This document shows positions 2,957 to 39,105 of a stretch of DNA of 64,000 bases, piece by piece. Within the stretch, counting starts at the first letter, position 1. Every line of letters begins with the position of its first letter. This stretch comes from a virus: positions 21,367 to 85,366 of the IMG/VR virus record IMGVR_UViG_3300021964_006878. One strand, written 5' to 3'. The position numbers and the translations under genes were made by a program. A model generated the notes under the pieces. That model made no database searches. It was not told where the DNA came from and worked only from the letters and a program-made list of their open reading frames with translations.

Positions 2957-3127
2957 TCAGTCAGTAAGAGATACTTCTCCACGTAACTCCATAAGTTTAA
3001 TCTCTGCAAGAGTCCCAACACATTCCCAGTATGTTTCTCCACTGATACGAGTATCATCGCAGTAATGTTCTGCAATGTCTTCCTGTAGATGCTTGAGATT
3101 AACAAGGTCGTCTCGGTCGATTTGCAT
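2957..3127 (-). CDS. Small hypothetical protein
   Basis: ORF track, start trimmed to MQIDRDD. Confidence 0.5.
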   Translation of the reverse strand: MQIDRDDLVNLKHLQEDIAEHYCDDTRISGETYWECVGTLAEIKLMELRGEVSLTD

Positions 3128-3182
3128 TTGAGATTCGTTGGTTACCTGATTATTATAGCAGGTCTGGAGTGGGTCGTCAACC

Positions 3183-21267: not shown

Positions 21268-21439
21268 CAATTCGTTCAAAATCTTCAATTTCGTCTGCAG
21301 TAACTTCGTGTTCATTATTGATTAGATACCAATGATGGCCAGAACGTTTACCAAGATACTGTAATTCTTCATCGATCCATGAGTTTTCACGCATTGCTGC
21401 TTGAATTTTATAATGAATCAATTCACCTCTAGAAATCAT
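21251..21439 (-). CDS. Hypothetical protein
   Basis: 62 aa, coupled to gp33. Confidence 0.55.
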   Translation of the reverse strand: MISRGELIHYKIQAAMRENSWIDEELQYLGKRSGHHWYLINNEHEVTADEIEDFERIDDDTD

Positions 21440-23395: not shown

Positions 23396-23998
23396 TTAGA
23401 CCCATTCAAGGGCTTCAGCAATGATAGAAAGGTTGTTGTGTATTTTTTTGATATGCTCTGCAAAATGTTTTACATCCATATCTAACTTCATACTATTACA
23501 TATTCTACAGCAAGGAACGCAGTTCTCTTTGGTATAACCAAGAGTATTATCTACTCTATCAACACCTGTATAGTAGAAATCGCCACTGGTTTTTCCTCCT
23601 CCCTTTACTCTATTCTGACCTTGACTTCCACAATAAAGACAAGGAGCAGTTGCTATACCACAAAACTCATCTTTTGTCAAGTCAAATGTGTGGTTTCTTT
23701 TCTCCGCACATTTAGAGTATTGATAGTATAAGTTATTTTTTGCAGCCTCACCAGGAGCAAGTTGCCAAGACCTGGTGTATGCTCCACCATTATGTTTCCA
23801 AGTAGAGGATATTTTTTGGTTACATCCACAGGAGTATCTCCTCTTTATGTTGAAACTATACATCTCCTTTACATTATCACATAAAGAACACCTCACAACT
23901 CCTCTGGTGTGTCGTCCTGATTTAGTTGCAGGTATTACTTCCAGTATAGTAAAGTTTCCTACAACATCTCCAACATTGATAGAAGATTTTCTTCCCAT
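23396..23998 (-). mobile_element. Free-standing HNH-type homing endonuclease (downstream of thyX)
   Basis: SCGC N-domain, CLYCG...GVDRVDNTLGYTKENCVPCCRICNSMK; own TATAAATA late promoter at 24023-24030. Confidence 0.85.
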
Positions 23999-24035
23999 AG
24001 TAGTAATGTATCCAACTACTTATATTTATATTATA

Positions 24036-24689
24036 TCATATCAACCACTCATTATCAATACCTCCAAGTGCTTCTGCTGTTATGGGAAACTCTTTACAAA
24101 ATATCTCCTTACAAGATTTTGCAATTTCCATATGCTCTTTCTGTGTTCCATTCTTCTCTCTCAGAGCAATGTAAGTAATCCAACTCCGCAGACTGCCAGT
24201 CATGTAGATTCTGGTGGGAGTACAGAGGGGAAGCACATTTCTTGCACATTCCTTTGCCACACCACGCTCAAGCATCTGCTGATATAATGCCATAGAAGAA
24301 TCAAACAGAGTCTGCATTTGCAGTTCCATGTTCTGAATTATAAAAGGATCAAGGTCATCAATCGAGTTCTGACGATTCTTTGTATCCTGACGGCGAAGTT
24401 CAGGCAAAGGAATCTTATCACCAAGCAGAGATGAATCTGCATACCGTTGTGAAAATTCTTGATATGTGAAACTTCTATGACGCAATATCTGAGCCGCAAT
24501 AGCACGGGTAGTCTCAATCTCTAAGGTCATAGTGGATTGTTCAAACACAGACCAGTGGTTGTGCTTGATACAGTAACGTAAAAGACCAGCGTACTTATCG
24601 TTCTCCTGGTTACTGGGGTTGGAAACTCTAGCGATATACGCCATAGTCTTTTCTGCGTCAGGAGTAACGCTTACTAGTTGTGCTCTCAT
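24036..24689 (-). CDS. thyX: Flavin-dependent thymidylate synthase
   Basis: HWSVFE, QILRHRSFTYQEFSQRY, KECARNVLP. Confidence 0.95.
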   Translation of the reverse strand: MRAQLVSVTPDAEKTMAYIARVSNPSNQENDKYAGLLRYCIKHNHWSVFEQSTMTLEIETTRAIAAQILRHRSFTYQEFSQRYADSSLLGDKIPLPELRRQDTKNRQNSIDDLDPFIIQNMELQMQTLFDSSMALYQQMLERGVAKECARNVLPLCTPTRIYMTGSLRSWITYIALREKNGTQKEHMEIAKSCKEIFCKEFPITAEALGGIDNEWLI

Positions 24690-25195
24690 AACATTTGCAA
24701 TAATCTATGTTCTTTGTGATGATTTCTTGTGCCCTTATATGTTTTGTGTAGAGTTTGTTTGTTTAAATCATTCTCTAAACAAAATGTCGTAAGGTTTTTC
24801 ACCTCTATTATATCACCAGAAGGGATTTTAATCAACCACCTTTTAGAGTTGTCTGGCATTTTATAAACCCCATTCTTAATGGCGTCTTCAACATTTTCTT
24901 TTATTGTTCCCCATTTTAGATTAGATAAAGAGTTATTATCTTTATTGTCGTCAAGATGTCTAACTACTTCGTGGTTCTTTGGGTTTGGAATAAATGCCAT
25001 AGCAAGAAGTTGATGTAGTCCTTTCTGCCTTCTTTTTCCTTTTAAATCATACAAAGAAAAAGCATAGTATCCCCTTTTGTTTTTATGCCCGTTAATATAT
25101 CTTTTAAGTTTAATCGAATAAACTTTTCCATCTGGGTATATTTTATAATGAGGATACTCATCTAGTATTCTACAATCCATCTCCATCATCGTCAT
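24686..25195 (-). mobile_element. HNH homing endonuclease (upstream of thyX)
   Basis: HQLLAMAFIPNP...VRHLDDNKDNNSLSNLKWGT; TATAAATA at 25214-25221. Confidence 0.85.
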
Positions 25196-32897: not shown

Positions 32898-32902
32898 AGT
32901 AG

Positions 32903-33094
32903 TTATTTGTTGTTTTTACATGATAGTCCATAATAATAAATCTTATTGTGATTGTTCTGCCCCATTCGATAAGGAAACATTTCTTCTGCTCTTTCCTTTA
33001 TCTGAAGTTCAGTTAAGTTTGGTGCCTCATAACAAATCGTAGACATGTAATAAGACATTCCTGCTGCTAATAAGAAAGACATAAAACTTATCAT
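32903..33094 (-). CDS. Hypothetical protein
   Basis: ORF track. Confidence 0.5.
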   Translation of the reverse strand: MISFMSFLLAAGMSYYMSTICYEAPNLTELQIKERAEEMFPYRMGQNNHNKIYYYGLSCKNNK

Positions 33095-33157
33095 AATTTA
33101 ATTATCTATAATAAAAGCACCCCTGTAAAGGAGTGCTGTGACGGTTTGGGAAGTGGT

Positions 33158-33721
33158 TTAGAGTGCTTCCAGATTTTCTACCAGTGTTTTGAGTTCTGTA
33201 AGTGTGGCATCATTCTTGAGAGTATTAGCCCTATAACTTATTACCCAGATATTATCAGGAGTATATCCTTTTCCAGGAACTTTTTGATCTAAACTTGGAT
33301 TTCTTGGGTCTGTCTTATCACTTGTAGATACTAATGGTATTCCAAGTAAAGGACAAACTTCTGGTATTACAATATCATCCATAGAGATTGTAAAGGGTAT
33401 ACCTTTTTTCTTTGCTCTGTGTTGAGCATTATGATACATCTTATATCTACGGTCGTCTCGTTTGAGAGTTCCTTCAGGTTTCTTTTTAGTTTTATTGAAG
33501 GTAATTGTAGTTTCTCTTCTAACACACCCACAACTTGTAGTTCTTCCAGTCGTTAATCCACTTCTGTCACAAGTTTTTTCTCCACCACATTCACATTTAC
33601 AAGTTGCATATACTCTGGTTTTTCCACTCTTTAAAATAACTTCTTCTTTTAAAACAGTAAGTTTTCCAAACTTCTCATCAACTAAAGCACCACAAGGTTT
33701 TGATTTATTATTTAATCCCAT
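33158..33721 (-). mobile_element. Free-standing homing endonuclease downstream of psbD
   Basis: KFGKLTV...CKCECG...SCGC; CPLLG...SLDQKVPGKGYTPDNIWVISYRANTLK; TATAAATA at 33747-33754. Confidence 0.85.
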
Positions 33722-33783
33722 GACACGAACTATGAATAACTATTATTATTTATATAATATCATACTCTGGGTCTTATGTAAAT

Positions 33784-33805
33784 AAAAAAGACCCCGAAGG
33801 GTCTT
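33784..33805 (-). terminator. psbD terminator
   Basis: AAGACCC-TTCG-GGGTCTT plus T-run. Confidence 0.8.
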
Positions 33806-33810
33806 GAGTA

Positions 33811-34869
33811 TCAAAGAGCATTTCCTCTTGGAAGGATCTCCTCAATTACAGGAAAGTTTTCGTGTGGTTGGTCAATAGTCATCATCCATTCACGGAGGCC
33901 ATTGTTCAACAAAATATTTTTCGTGTAGAAAGTTTCGTATGAAGCGTCCTCTGCTGCTCTAATCTCTTGACTCACAAAATCATAGGCACGAAGATTAAAA
34001 GCAAGCCCAATGATCCCAATAGAGGAGACCCAAAGACCCATGACAGGAACAAAAAGCATAAGGAAATGAAGAAACCGCTTATTGCTAAACGCAATCCCGA
34101 AGATTTGCGACCAGAAACGGTTCGCAGTAACCATCGAATAGGTCTCCTCCTCCTGAGTGGAATCGAACGCTTTAAATGTGTTTGCCTGTTCTCCATCTTC
34201 ATACAATGTATTTTCTACTGTGACACCATGGATAGCACTGAGTAGTGCTCCTCCTAGTATACCAGCAACTCCCATCATATGGAAGGGGTTGAGGGTCCAG
34301 TTGTGGAAACCCTGAAGGAACAATAGGAATCTAAAGATTGCTGCTACCCCGAAACTAGGTGCAAAGAACCATGAAGACTGACCCAGTGGATAGATAAGGA
34401 ATACACTGACAAAAACAGCAATAGGACCAGAGAACGCAATAGCATTGTAAGGACGGATACCAATCAGGCGAGCAAGTTCAAACTGTCGAAGCATGAAACC
34501 AATGAGAGCAAAGGCTCCGTGGAGTGCCACAAAATTCCAGAGTCCCCCAAGTTGGCACCAGCGTTGAAAGTCCCCTTGAGACTCAGGACCCCAAAGTAGC
34601 AAAAGAGAATGACCCATAGCGTCAGCAGGCGTCGAGACAGCTGCCGTAAGAAAGTTAGCACCCTCAAGATAGGAAGAAGCAAGACCATGGGTGTACCAAC
34701 TCGTAACAAAAGATGTGCCAGTAAGCCAACCGCCAATGGCAAGATAAGCAGTGGGAAGAAGTAAGAGTCCAGACCAACCCACAAAGACAAAGCGATCCCG
34801 TTTAAGCCAGTCATCCAGGACATCAAACCATCCCCTCCCTTGTTGCTGTGATAATGTTGATGTTGTCAC
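33811..34869 (-). CDS. psbD: Photosystem II D2 protein
   Basis: [21 protein letters not shown]...PRGNAL; GTG start. Confidence 0.98.
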
Positions 34870-35220: not shown

Positions 35221-36300
35221 TCAACCAACTGTGGGTGCAATTAAGGCCACAGGTGTGGACTCTACTGCTGCCAAATCAAGTGGGAAGTTGTGTGCGTTTC
35301 TCTCGTGCATCACCTCCATACCAAGTCCTGCTCGGTTAAGAACGTCTGCCCAAGTGTTAAGAACTCTACCCTGTCCGTCGATAACAGACTGGTTGAAGTT
35401 AAATCCATTCAAATTGAATGCCATGGTGCTTACGCCCAGTGCGGTGAACCAGATACCAACAACAGGCCATGCAGCAAGGAAGAAGTGCAATGAGCGTGAG
35501 TTGTTGAATGAAGCGTATTGGAAGATCAAACGACCAAAGTAACCGTGAGCGGCAACAATGTTGTATGTCTCTTCTTCTTGTCCGAACTTGTAACCATAGT
35601 TCTGTGACTCAGTTTCAGTCGTCTCACGGACGAGTGAAGATGTAACCAAAGAACCGTGCATCGCTGAGAACAATGAACCACCGAAGACACCAGCCACTCC
35701 AAGCATGTGGAAGGGGTGCATCAGGATGTTGTGCTCTGCTTGGAAGACAAGCATGTAGTTGAATGTACCACTGATACCCAAAGGCATCGCATCAGAGAAT
35801 GAACCTTGACCGAAAGGATAGACGAGGAATACAGCAGATGCTGCTGCTACTGGAGCAGAGTATGCTACACAGATCCATGGACGCATACCTAAGCGGTAAG
35901 AAAGTTCCCACTCACGTCCCATATAAGCATAGATGCCGATAAGGAAGTGGAAGACTACGAGTTGGAAAGGACCACCGTTATACAGCCACTCATCAAGAGA
36001 TGCTGCTTCCCAGATGGGATAGAAGTGAAGACCAATTGCGTTGGAGGATGGGACAACAGCACCAGAGATGATGTTGTTACCGTACATGAGTGAACCAGCA
36101 ACTGGTTCGCGGATACCGTCAATATCGACGGGGGGTGCTGCTACAAAAGCAACGATGAAACAGATGGTTGCCGCCAACAGAGTTGGGATCATCAGCACAC
36201 CAAACCAACCGACATAGAGACGATTGTTGGTAGATGTAACCCACTCGCAGAATTGTTCCCACGAAGAGGTTGATTGTTGTCTAGAAAGAGTTGAAGCCAT
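35221..36300 (-). CDS. psbA: Photosystem II D1 protein (intronless)
   Basis: NRLYVGWFG...[13 protein letters not shown]; 359 aa from MASTL. Confidence 0.99.
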
Positions 36301-36317
36301 TGTTTTGAACAAAAAAG

Positions 36318-38151: not shown

Positions 38152-38589
38152 ATGAATACTATGATTCGTTGGTCTGTCCTAAGTGCGGTGGGTGTAAGTG
38201 TCACACTTGCTCCTGCCCTGTCGGTCCCCGTGGTCCCAAACTTCACACAGGGATCAATGACGAGCAGAACGGAAACAACTCAGAAGATAACTGAGACAAT
38301 AAATAGCATGGATTATAACACTGGGTATCAGTATTCTGCTACTGGTTCTGGTGTCACAGCATCTGGAAACCTTTCACCAGGAACAGGTGCTACAAATGTA
38401 ACTATTAATGGAGTGACTTCATCATGGACTGGAGTAACAAGCAAACCGCAATTCACACAAACAGTACCAGGAGCAGCGTTTCAGTTCACAGAAACTTATC
38501 GAGGACCTGGTTTAAGCAACCAAACGATTATCCAAAGAGAAACCGAGGTTACAAGCATAACTGAAACAACCTCAATTTTTAGTCAGTGA
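38152..38589 (+). CDS. Secreted Thr-rich beta protein
   Basis: Signal peptide, VPVVPNF...TTSIFSQ; GGAGG RBS. Confidence 0.75.
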   Translation: MNTMIRWSVLSAVGVSVTLAPALSVPVVPNFTQGSMTSRTETTQKITETINSMDYNTGYQYSATGSGVTASGNLSPGTGATNVTINGVTSSWTGVTSKPQFTQTVPGAAFQFTETYRGPGLSNQTIIQRETEVTSITETTSIFSQ

Positions 38590-39105
38590 TTTCAGTGCCT
38601 CATAGAGCATTCCAATTTCCTCTATGGTGGCATTATTCTTTATACGATTAGCACGAGCAGAAATGATCCAAACATTATCTTTTGTATAACCTTTGGTGCT
38701 ATCAATCCTATCAACAGAAGGAGAACAATCTTGATGAGTGTCTGATCCTGGTTGTAATTTAATACCAAGCACAGGACAAAACTCTGGGATTACAATATCA
38801 TCCAGAACCAAACTACATTCTTCACCTCTTCTTCTGGCATTACGACGAGCATAGTTTAGCAGTCGTGTTTCATTCTTTTTAGTAGGATTAGCTCTGGGAT
38901 GTGTGTAACCTGCTGACTTTCTACACCCACAACTTACTACTGGTTTCCTACCTCTAAATATATCAGAACTAATAAGTTTTTCATTATTACACTCGGAACA
39001 CTTACACCAGTAAGTTCCTCTCTTATTTTTCTTGGTTGCCTCTTCATCCTTACGAATAACAAGAAGAGCACCAAATGTTTGTCCCGACAAATCTACTACT
39101 TTCAT
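38572..39105 (-). mobile_element. Homing endonuclease inserted antisense in the secreted-protein cassette
   Basis: DLSGQTFGALLV...CKCSEC...SCGC...CPVLG...SVDRIDSTKGYTKDNVWIISARANRIK; TATAAATA at 39137-39144. Confidence 0.85.

Follow-up and report, generated by a model that had tools for sequence, protein, structure and literature searches.

The psbD gene in a 64,000-nt stretch of marine cyanophage DNA (hereafter "the window"; positions 21,367 to 85,366 of IMG/VR record IMGVR_UViG_3300021964_006878) raises a question: is the divergent C-terminus of the encoded photosystem II (PSII) protein D2 connected with the small endonuclease gene that follows it? Both psbD and psbA are textbook auxiliary metabolic genes of marine phages. 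To our knowledge, the mosaic evolution of these two genes has been documented for twenty years with no mechanism. The psbD part of the locus comprises the following features.

33811–34869, minus strand: psbD (photosystem II D2), 352 aa, GTG start (ORF list and Pfam Photo_RC)
34210–34773, minus strand: psbD codons ~33–220, S-RIM44-like (93–100% nucleotide identity per 20-codon window)
34054–34113, minus strand: psbD codons 253–272, with F266 and L270; no close DNA neighbor (best 88%)
33814–33963, minus strand: psbD codons 303–352, the diverged lumenal tail (alignment; zone of endonuclease-linked diversity)

The product of 33811–34869 matched Photo_RC (PF00124) with E = 3.9e-71 in Pfam, and the iron ligands H214 and H268 as well as the donor-side residues E312 and K317, all invariant in the alignment, identify it as D2. 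The preliminary description, which was made from the sequence by itself, had drawn attention to a heavily diverged C-terminus. Indeed, the residues quoted there were correct, and 12 of the last 52 differ from the consensus of element-free phage D2 proteins: P309A, E310S, F311Y, E323N, A327E, A330M, P331T, V332I, V340P, F341V, P342I, and V345I. This tail is rare. In INPHARED, 420 records contained a psbD tail, of which only that of cyanophage S-SKS1 reached 95% identity, the rest being at 90% or below; among the 594 confirmed IMG/VR matches listed, only contigs L037 and L038 reached 95%, with L039 at 87%. A large protein search with residues 253–352 returned nothing above 85%, although its candidate sampling missed even S-SKS1. 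We reject one further substitution, W266F, as a novelty: together with F270L it is the normal state of Prochlorococcus-phage-type D2, and the F266/L270 motif is encoded by 115 IMG/VR stretches. An exact 31-mer from this patch was found in no other IMG/VR contig.

The same description had called for a sliding-window comparison of psbD, and this comparison revealed breakpoints within the gene and at its stop codon. By nearest neighbors, the window psbD combines DNA from at least four sources. Its 5′ two-thirds resemble cyanophage S-RIM44 (97–100% nucleotide identity over codons 73–212), whereas its last 40 codons (313–352; 33814–33933) are 98–100% identical to S-SKS1 and L037. S-RIM44 itself has a canonical D2 tail, and the genes flanking the window psbD are unrelated to those of S-RIM44 despite the near-identical 5′ portion. 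The GC content of the tail is 0.35–0.43, vs. 0.45–0.51 upstream. The pattern is the one that Sullivan et al. (2006; PMC1484495) reported for Synechococcus myoviruses, in which psbD is mosaic with a low-GC last segment. Their report gives no mechanism and mentions endonucleases nowhere; the window offers a candidate driver at the psbD 3′ end.

One unusual psbD allele was encountered in the course of these comparisons. In Syn7803C93, an isolate of ACG-2014d, an apparent insertion of ~211 nt proved to be a duplication of codons ~12–82. It had no Rfam match, and we rejected an intron as its explanation.

The neighboring gene and the elements around it are arranged as follows.

33841–33846, minus strand: psbD codons 342–343, the insertion point as set in related contigs (L233, L234, and L028 edges)
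33788–33805, minus strand: terminator-like hairpin and T-run directly after the psbD stop, common to the L007-type element
33782–33754, minus strand: sigma-70-like site overlapping the late-promoter-like motif (scan)
33747–33754, minus strand: TATAAATA, resembling a T4-type late promoter, upstream of the endonuclease gene (sequence read and scan)
33158–33721, minus strand: free-standing endonuclease gene (HEG), 187 aa (PHROG, family alignment, PDB profile)
33158–33166, minus strand: final A-L-stop of the HEG, a putative psbD-end relic of two codons plus stop (flank comparison)
33116–33137, minus strand: terminator-like hairpin downstream of the HEG; its homologue is the native psbD terminator of the element-free L072 and L086

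The HEG lies on the strand of psbD, 89 nt downstream of it, and its product matches PHROG endonuclease families (phrog_3322, E = 2.7e-31; phrog_1035, E = 6e-22), in keeping with the original assignment of an endonuclease directly after psbD. No match was found in Pfam, in NCBIfam, or in a single-sequence search of the PDB. Only the family profile reached a known structure, that of PacI (3ldy; E = 1.7e-4), with residues aligned to the VDR..GY..N..N..K of that enzyme. In an alignment of 21 sequences (20–86% identity), the N-terminal half forms a domain rich in beta structure and in Cys, with C43, C45, C64, and C66 invariant; in the C-terminal half, D145, G152, Y153, N157, N166, and K169 are invariant. 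D145 is followed by Q, K, or R but in no case by His, and no conserved His was found anywhere in this alignment. The AlphaFold2 model (pLDDT 85.6) places strands at 142–146 and 158–162, followed by a helix at 163–171, and a Foldseek search with it returned PacI (3ldy_A) over 107 columns with a probability of 0.98 but a weak E value of 0.13. As judged from the alignment and the model, the HEG product carries a ββα-metal core with a tyrosine in its omega-loop, and is a PacI-like, tyrosine-type His-Me finger protein for which catalysis is predicted. In PacI, a tyrosine replaces the catalytic histidine (PMC5714182).

The resemblance to PacI (PDB 3LDY/3M7K; His-Me finger group 20, PMC5714182) thus comprises the ββα-metal core with the pattern D-(R/Q/K)...G-Y...N...N-x-x-K, the omega-loop tyrosine in the place of the catalytic histidine, and Cys-rich motifs of zinc type. 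PacI, however, is a bacterial restriction enzyme of 142 aa that forms a homodimer and has an 8-bp site, whereas the HEG product has an extra N-terminal beta-rich domain and its gene behaves genomically as a site-specific mobile element. The preliminary description had likened the gene to F-CphI and to the seg/mob genes of T4. This kinship did not hold up: the HEG is PacI-like, and we rejected homology to F-CphI in view of a BLASTP E value of 1.9 and the lack of a His at the aligned position of its D-H...N motif.

Where does this gene sit in other phages? All relatives of at least 42% identity for which upstream DNA was available lie 22–111 nt after psbD. We counted 35 contigs with psbD-linked HEGs, S-SKS1 among them, with 19 distinct psbD tails and at least eight different sequence contexts downstream of the HEG. 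The 3′ ends of psbD were compared between these 35 occupied alleles and 75 empty ones. The HEG is outside any intron or intein, and empty alleles are known for the window type (L072 and L086), the L024 type (L079 and L095), and the L028 type (L044 and L051).

The edges of the element are set by L028 and by L233 and L234, a pair whose psbD backgrounds are only 70–85% identical. Exactly 30 nt before the psbD stop, their identity jumps from 0.80 to 0.98; it is 82–92% along most of the HEG, dropping once to 0.72. They share no tract, and hence no sign of co-conversion, upstream of codon 343. Both contain the sequence EEVLPRGNAL-stop twice, the two copies sharing 22–24 of 33 nt. The psbD copy is the same in the two contigs except for one synonymous base (GCA/GCG at A351), whereas the copy at the end of the HEG is not the same in the two and leads into the terminator of the respective recipient. 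The L028 HEG ends with the same 10 codons, followed by a terminator matching those of the element-free L044, L051, and L062; its homology to the psbD end begins at codon 343. Indeed, the right edge falls at the recipient's codon 343 in L028, L233, L234, and L235, and each of these contigs has a downstream flank of its own. As placed by these edges, the element family enters between psbD codons 342 and 343. By the same comparison, its left end carries a recoded version of the last 10 psbD codons with their stop, and then a terminator and/or a late promoter ahead of the nuclease ORF. That ORF has no stop codon of its own; it continues into what was the recipient's psbD end and uses the stop and terminator found there.

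The window presents a reduced version of this layout. Its insertion point is flanked by the substitutions V340P, F341V, P342I, and V345I, and the TATAAATA motif that precedes its HEG recurs in L233 and L234, where it directly adjoins the psbD stop. The DNA after the HEG stop is the DNA found after the psbD stop in the element-free L072 and L086. The full-length relic EEVLPRGNAL-stop is present in L028, L233, L234, and L235, and the window has the L028 form minus 21 nt; judging from these flanks, its right-hand psbD relic has shrunk to A-L-stop. This 9-nt end could be partly native HEG sequence rather than psbD relic, as its LEAL ending resembles the LKKL, LKAL, and LKRL of sister HEGs. No contig spanning an empty site for the window was found in the four runs examined.

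Is the presence of the element associated with changes in D2? In the tail, pN was 0.135 among HEG-linked alleles vs. 0.034 among those lacking the HEG, with equal pS (0.75 and 0.76); upstream, pN was equal (0.048 vs. 0.046), and synonymous diversity there did not differ either. The difference in the tail was significant (Mann-Whitney p = 2.8e-6), and remained so when each unique tail was counted once (p = 0.014), but these p values are optimistic because the HEG-linked alleles are not phylogenetically independent. The amino-acid excess of HEG-linked alleles, approximately fourfold, is confined to codons 303–345, with a sharp onset at codon 303, and this zone adjoins the insertion point of the element. 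Leaving out the window, S-SKS1, and L037, the excess persisted (4.0 vs. 0.92 differences, p = 1.2e-5). The HEG-linked alleles carry differing substitutions and do not converge on one state. With the HEGs grouped by N-terminal domain type, the seven type-I alleles are all altered within codons 304–311. A fixed nucleotide difference between alleles with and without the HEG, sought as a marker of the target site, was not found. Further, an altered tail is not required alongside the HEG, as L234, L061, and L233 have the gene and yet keep canonical or nearly canonical tails.

The window tail itself was found only in carriers of the HEG family at this site (S-SKS1, L037, and, in part, L039) or in L038. 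These findings support the co-occurrence of tail and endonuclease that had been proposed, and such a tail, far from being common in phages without the endonuclease, lacked it only in L038. This near-isogenic relative has the last 15 nt of the HEG beside psbD. The 15-nt match may be a scar of HEG loss or a psbD-end relic, since the end of the HEG also derives from psbD.

Tail and HEG do not move together as a single cassette, an arrangement that we considered and rejected: the window HEG is ~50% identical to those of S-SKS1 and L037, despite 98–100% identity of the tail DNA. The HEGs closest to that of the window, in L007 and L009 (82–86%), adjoin quite different tails. With the tail nearest S-SKS1/L037 and the HEG nearest L007/L009, the two have different histories.

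A gene with so many sources might have been joined by the assembler, and a chimera of co-occurring phages could account for both the mosaic and the HEG junction: the window is part of a viral contig that was assembled from a metagenome and is estimated to be 43% complete, psbD is a conserved multi-strain gene of the kind prone to chimeric assembly, and its 5′ part is ~100% identical to that of S-RIM44. However, Logan contigs from three separate studies match the arrangement of the window with zero differences at the HEG–psbD junction (X1, 33419–33868; X2, 33419–33822), the variant tail (X9, 33826–33979), the 266/270 patch (X2, 33955–34105; X9, 34032–34153), and the HEG 3′ end with its downstream flank (X9, 32900–33178). 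Half or more of the sampled words were contained in 14 DNA runs from at least seven studies, and tail and HEG are laid out alike in S-SKS1, a phage in culture. We therefore regard a chimera as exceedingly improbable. Alternatively, the tail could be an adaptation of D2 to host or niche, for instance by way of docking to a different PsbO or CP47 or tuning of lumenal proton exit, and linked to the HEG by shared ancestry only. The changes do lie in the lumenal C-terminal region, where E310 has been described as the center of a surface network with PsbO; the tail is common to a small related set (the window, L038, and S-SKS1 with L037); and estuary metagenomes are among the runs containing the sequence. 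This explanation is nonetheless quite unlikely in our estimation. The many HEG-linked alleles hold different substitutions rather than a single adaptive state, upstream divergence is identical with and without the HEG, the upstream psbD of the window is nearly identical to that of the canonical-tailed S-RIM44, and the zone of excess abuts the insertion point.

An explanation of a different kind takes the ORF as a decayed or domesticated nuclease, or a PacI-like restriction-type one directed at the DNA of hosts or rivals, occupying a recombination-prone intergenic slot after psbD, the tail having arrived by ordinary phage recombination. Mosaic cyanophage psbD with a low-GC last segment was already known (Sullivan et al. 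2006; PMC1484495), many different small genes occupy slots after psbD, the catalytic histidine is absent, and a restriction-type role has been suggested for viral homologues of PacI (PMC5714182). One metatranscriptome yielded no RNA contig over the HEG, which fits an inactive gene but in itself says nothing on expression. Yet the insertion point within the gene is the same in unrelated psbD backgrounds, with a recoded duplicate of the last 10 codons; passive accumulation does not predict this combination. The ORF is intact, its D, Y, N, N, and K residues and four cysteines are invariant in 21 sequences, and tyrosine in place of histidine is the mechanism of PacI. We thus consider an inactive or restriction-type nuclease unlikely.

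We favor, as the probable reading, a 187-aa ORF that encodes a free-standing PacI-like homing endonuclease, of an element family specialized on the 3′ end of cyanophage psbD and reshaping the tail. The position of the HEG inside the last psbD codons, together with the altered tails of element-linked alleles, suggests such a homing element at work on a viral photosynthesis gene. Presumably, the enzyme would cut element-free psbD in or near the last ~50 codons, and the break would be repaired from an element-bearing copy. The old psbD end, kept at the right edge, may serve as a portable homology arm, by which the element could enter any psbD, whatever lies downstream. Repeated rounds of repair, and hitchhiking on a driving element, would leave a patchy amino-acid excess in codons 303–345, to which selection for uncuttable sites possibly adds. 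The window would then be an extreme case, in which a tail of the S-SKS1/L037 lineage was joined to an L007-type element within the last ~20 nt of psbD. That the resident D2 allele may be immune to the endonuclease, as had been proposed, is a candidate reading.

What would the altered tail do to D2? The protein is probably functional, as the altered residues are on the lumenal surface and are mostly at positions tolerant of change. The proton-gate residues E312 and K317 are intact in the window. In published work, mutation of D2-E310 or D2-E323 left FTIR spectra unchanged, with E323 on the surface and E310 at the center of the network with PsbO residues (bioRxiv 10.1101/2021.01.29.428861). Given the retention of E312 and K317 and the behavior of those mutants, a large change in PSII donor-side chemistry appears unlikely. 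A bolder proposal, which we hold to be doubtful, is that breaks made by the psbD element are the main engine of psbD mosaicism and possibly of phage–host exchange, and that drive spreads otherwise disfavored tail changes; the PSII built in infected cells would then have a D2 with a measurable change on its PsbO-facing and proton-exit surface.

Known systems share parts of this design. F-CphI of S-PM2 (Zeng et al. 2009; PMC6083498) is likewise a free-standing endonuclease beside a PSII core gene in a T4-like cyanophage, with the neighboring conserved gene as the presumed target. It differs in its Endo VII D-H...N motif and in its position after psbA, where it cuts at an intron insertion site; the window element is inside the last psbD codons and replaces them. 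SegF, SegG, SegB, and MobE of T4 are free-standing too, located at the ends of conserved genes or between them, and they spread via double-strand break repair with flanking co-conversion and resistant polymorphisms in the alleles that carry them (PMC2988022). They are GIY-YIG or canonical HNH enzymes, intergenic and with stop codons of their own, in contrast to the PacI-like, tyrosine-type HEG, whose family ORF ends in a copy of the terminal codons of the target gene. The mobile ORFs of fungal mitochondria (Allomyces macrogynus atp6; Glomus atp6, atp9, cox2, and nad3; PMC3630166) are similar in that a conserved gene is invaded in its 3′ part by an endonuclease ORF, which brings in a foreign C-terminus and leaves the native one downstream, the two copies differing mostly at synonymous sites. 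Those elements encode LAGLIDADG or GIY-YIG enzymes in eukaryotic organelles and make duplications of 50–300 nt, whereas the psbD element targets a phage auxiliary metabolic gene, makes a 30-nt duplication, and has a His-Me finger ORF that uses the old stop and terminator. The two copies of the end that mark C-terminal replacement are found in L233 and L234; the window has the 9-nt relic only. No published description of this psbD–HEG arrangement was found; we take the psbD element as a probable case of intronless homing with C-terminal replacement.

A putative site-specific mobile nuclease in the last psbD codons, with a measurable footprint on the C-terminal 50 residues, provides a testable mechanism of mosaicism; crosses and cleavage assays are feasible, as S-SKS1 is grown in culture on Synechococcus WH7803. 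So far, we know of PacI-like tyrosine-type His-Me fingers only as one restriction enzyme and uncharacterized viral homologues. If the proposed reading is true, these proteins would gain a role in homing, and the C-terminal-replacement design of the fungal elements would exist in bacteriophages as well. The retained old gene end, acting as a portable homology arm, would solve the problem of variable downstream flanks. A selfish element, then, may shape the sequence of a photosynthetic reaction-center protein.

The D2 gene considered here lies on an 85-kb IMG/VR contig, of which the window is part, from a T4-like cyanomyovirus; the contig is estimated to be 43% complete. In order, the psbD region comprises:

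35221-36312, minus strand: psbA
between psbA and psbD, minus strand: DUF7441 ORF
33811-34869, minus strand: psbD (352 aa)
between psbD and the 187-aa ORF: spacer of 89 nt
33158-33721, minus strand: nuclease ORF (187 aa; with its family, HEG)
after the 187-aa ORF, minus strand: small ORFs, then purC

The GC content of psbD falls from 0.45-0.51 in the body to about 0.35 at the 3' end. At least half of the sampled sequence words were present in 14 DNA runs from at least seven studies (estuary, marine, sediment), and contigs from three studies agreed without a single difference across four stretches: the junction of HEG with psbD, the tail, the 266/270 patch and the junction of HEG with its downstream flank.

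The D2 tail of the window is unusual. The preliminary description gave the diverged sequence correctly: over its final 52 residues, it departs at 12 positions from the consensus of phage D2 proteins whose genes are element-free (that is, lack HEG). The cultured phage S-SKS1 was the only one of 420 phage records containing a psbD tail to match at 95% or better (98%), all others being at or below 90%; the nearest of the 594 confirmed IMG/VR tail-query matches listed were the contigs L037 and L038 (95%) and L039 (87%). W266F, which had been counted among the changes, proved with F270L to be the standard Prochlorococcus-phage-type state, the motif being encoded in 115 IMG/VR stretches.

What kind of enzyme is encoded next to this tail? 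The 187-aa ORF had no Pfam match, and it matched phage endonuclease PHROGs. A profile of 21 family members identified the restriction enzyme PacI (3LDY) over the catalytic core (E=1.7e-4), and Foldseek found PacI with an AF2 model of the nuclease (pLDDT 85.6; probability 0.98). Invariant across the family are D145, G152, Y153, N157, N166 and K169, together with C43, C45, C64 and C66; the family alignment has no conserved histidine. PacI is the known case in which an omega-loop tyrosine replaces the catalytic histidine (PMC5714182, PMC3384342). The nuclease is unrelated to F-CphI, which had been offered as a precedent. In the family alignments (A4, A5), the Cys-rich beta domain at the N-terminus and the nuclease domain at the C-terminus recombine independently of each other; in contig L025, an S-SKS1-type N-domain is joined to a window-type nuclease domain. 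The modeled N-domain is predicted to resemble CarD/Tudor-like beta barrels (Foldseek probability 0.93). The window holds two paralogues, at 38572-39105 and at 23396-23998 (after thyX). The former, a PacI-like endonuclease (43% identical; phrog_3322 at 1e-31), lies antisense between plus-strand genes, with psbD not adjoining.

All relatives with at least 42% identity and available upstream DNA, including that of S-SKS1, lie 22-111 nt after the psbD stop codon, with at least eight different sequences downstream of the nuclease ORF; those at or below 41% identity lie elsewhere, not at psbD. The nuclease ORF of contig L028 terminates with EEVLPRGNAL-stop. From this motif on, the L028 DNA matches the last 10 psbD codons, stop and terminator of the element-free contigs L044, L051 and L062, to which no similarity was found upstream of the motif. 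A pattern search returned four more such nuclease/psbD-end fusions. In L233 and L234, an intact psbD ending in EEVLPRGNAL-stop is followed directly after the stop by TATAAATA and then by a nuclease ORF that again ends in EEVLPRGNAL-stop. Between the two psbD-side copies of the motif, the sole difference is a synonymous base at A351 (GCA or GCG); the nuclease-end copies differ between the contigs, with a distinct native terminator after each. The psbD genes themselves are only 70-85% identical until a point exactly 30 nt short of the psbD stop, where the value rises abruptly to 98%; the nuclease genes are mostly 82-92% identical, with one dip to 0.72. From these boundary comparisons of L028, L233 and L234, we conclude that the element enters between psbD codons 342 and 343, that it carries a recoded replacement of the last 10 codons, and that the recipient's old psbD end becomes the element's own C-terminus, stop and terminator.

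The window nuclease ends in LEAL-stop, and the DNA past this stop is the post-psbD-stop sequence of element-free L072 and L086. Because the L028 form minus 21 nt equals the window form exactly, we interpret the window's A-L-stop as what is left of the old psbD end after shortening; part of this ending could be native to the nuclease, given the LKKL, LKAL or LKRL termini of sister enzymes.

Other junctions were also observed. A degenerate psbD-end copy (P-C-G-N-A) in the first ~35 nt past the psbD stop of L020, L022 and L061, before the pre-HEG terminator, suggests that tail replacement took place there a second time, one round nested in the other. In L009, L014, L017, L039 and L030, the HEG ORF continues into the beginning of a short hydrophobic ORF (MLLIL...QDL) found 3' of psbD in element-free phages, apparently a right-hand junction differing from the psbD-end fusion. 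Finally, thyX (24036-24689) lies between two endonuclease genes (23396-25195): a classical HNH gene upstream (24686-25195) and the paralogue at 23396-23998 downstream. Judging from the ends of thyX (ITAEALGGIDNEWLI-stop) and of this paralogue (IIAEALEWV-stop), the borrowed-gene-end design may hold there too.

The sliding-window comparison that had been proposed for locating breakpoints revealed a psbD mosaic with distinct sources by codon block. Codons ~33-220 (34210-34773, ~560 nt) share 93-100% identity in each 20-codon window with the cultured cyanophage S-RIM44 (97-100% over codons 73-212), whose psbD has a canonical tail and no HEG; this segment reflects a very recent exchange between distinct phage lineages. 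The genes neighboring psbD in the window are unrelated to those of S-RIM44. Codons 223-242 are L038- and S-SKS1-like, codons 253-272 had no close neighbor in the nearest-neighbor comparison, codons 293-312 are L038-like, and codons 313-352 are 98-100% identical to S-SKS1 and L037. From ~20 nt before the psbD stop, the window instead matches L007 (HEG 86% identical); the S-SKS1 and L037 HEGs are only ~50% identical to its own. Because the tail is S-SKS1/L037-like but the HEG is L007-like, their histories are separate, and a crossover within the final psbD codons brought the two together. S-SKS1 and L037 carry both such a tail and an endonuclease gene. The near-isogenic relative L038 has the variant tail, no HEG and a different 110-aa ORF in the slot. 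A 15-nt stretch of L038, located 17 nt past its psbD stop, matches the end of the HEG. Its 110-aa ORF (phrog_31449, no assigned function) is bracketed by two copies of a terminator-containing ~60-nt sequence (2701-2772, 3087-3158) and looks like a cassette-shuffling module. Separately, psbD of Synechococcus phage ACG-2014d isolate Syn7803C93 (KJ019062.1), annotated only over its 3' 933 nt, contains a ~213-nt tandem duplication of codons ~12-82 (1584-1826). An intron was rejected, with no Rfam match; the duplication could be real or an assembly error.

To define the footprint on D2, 14 HEG-linked and 36 element-free psbD alleles were compared. Over codons 103-300, pN was alike (0.048 vs. 0.046); over codons 301-352, it was 0.135 in HEG-linked vs. 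0.034 in element-free alleles (Mann-Whitney p=2.8e-6, ignoring shared ancestry), with pS at 0.75 vs. 0.76. By 10-codon bin, the excess starts abruptly at codon 303 (0.150 vs. 0.008) and extends to codon 345. It persists when the window, S-SKS1 and L037 are omitted (p=1.2e-5, again ignoring shared ancestry). Unique tails numbered 19 kinds in 35 HEG-linked contigs vs. 15 kinds in 75 element-free ones (p=0.014, likewise uncorrected for ancestry). No nucleotide fixed between the two classes was found, and a few HEG-linked alleles (L234, L061) keep the canonical tail. Each of the seven alleles associated with a window-type N-terminal domain carries changes in codons 304-311, and near the insertion point the window's own substitutions include VFP to PVI and V to I. 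Two stretches are candidate target zones: codons 338-346, which span the insertion point, and codons 304-311.

The sequence comparisons show a site-specific element with tail replacement and a local excess of amino-acid change. We propose that the enzyme would cut element-free psbD near its 3' end and that the occupied allele would then serve as the repair template; the old gene end kept by the element would offer homology on the right-hand side whatever the recipient, consistent with the high variability of the DNA after psbD. Recurrent repair, hitchhiking with a driving element and perhaps selection for sites that escape cutting would account for substitutions that are patchy and do not converge. 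Because element-free alleles vary freely at wobble positions, an enzyme spreading among them would have to read mostly non-wobble positions, and escape would then need amino-acid changes. The preliminary description, which proposed an endonuclease-immune allele with possibly altered photosystem II chemistry, is upheld in its observation and partly supported in its interpretation. A large change in donor-side chemistry is unlikely, because H214, H268, E312 and K317 are intact and because mutating E307, D308, E310 and E323 (the last on the surface) left FTIR spectra unaltered (bioRxiv 10.1101/2021.01.29.428861); there may be a subtle effect on PsbO docking.

No published account of such an arrangement turned up in literature searches on psbD together with homing endonuclease, HNH or S-SKS1. 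Sullivan et al. 2006 (PMC1484495) described psbD as mosaic, with a last segment of low GC, and made no mention of an endonuclease. Among known designs, the nearest are T4 intronless homing (PMC2988022), F-CphI at psbA (PMC6083498) and those mobile ORFs of fungal mitochondria by which the C-terminus of atp6, atp9, cox2 or nad3 is replaced (PMC3630166). The psbD element can be tested directly with the cultured phage S-SKS1.
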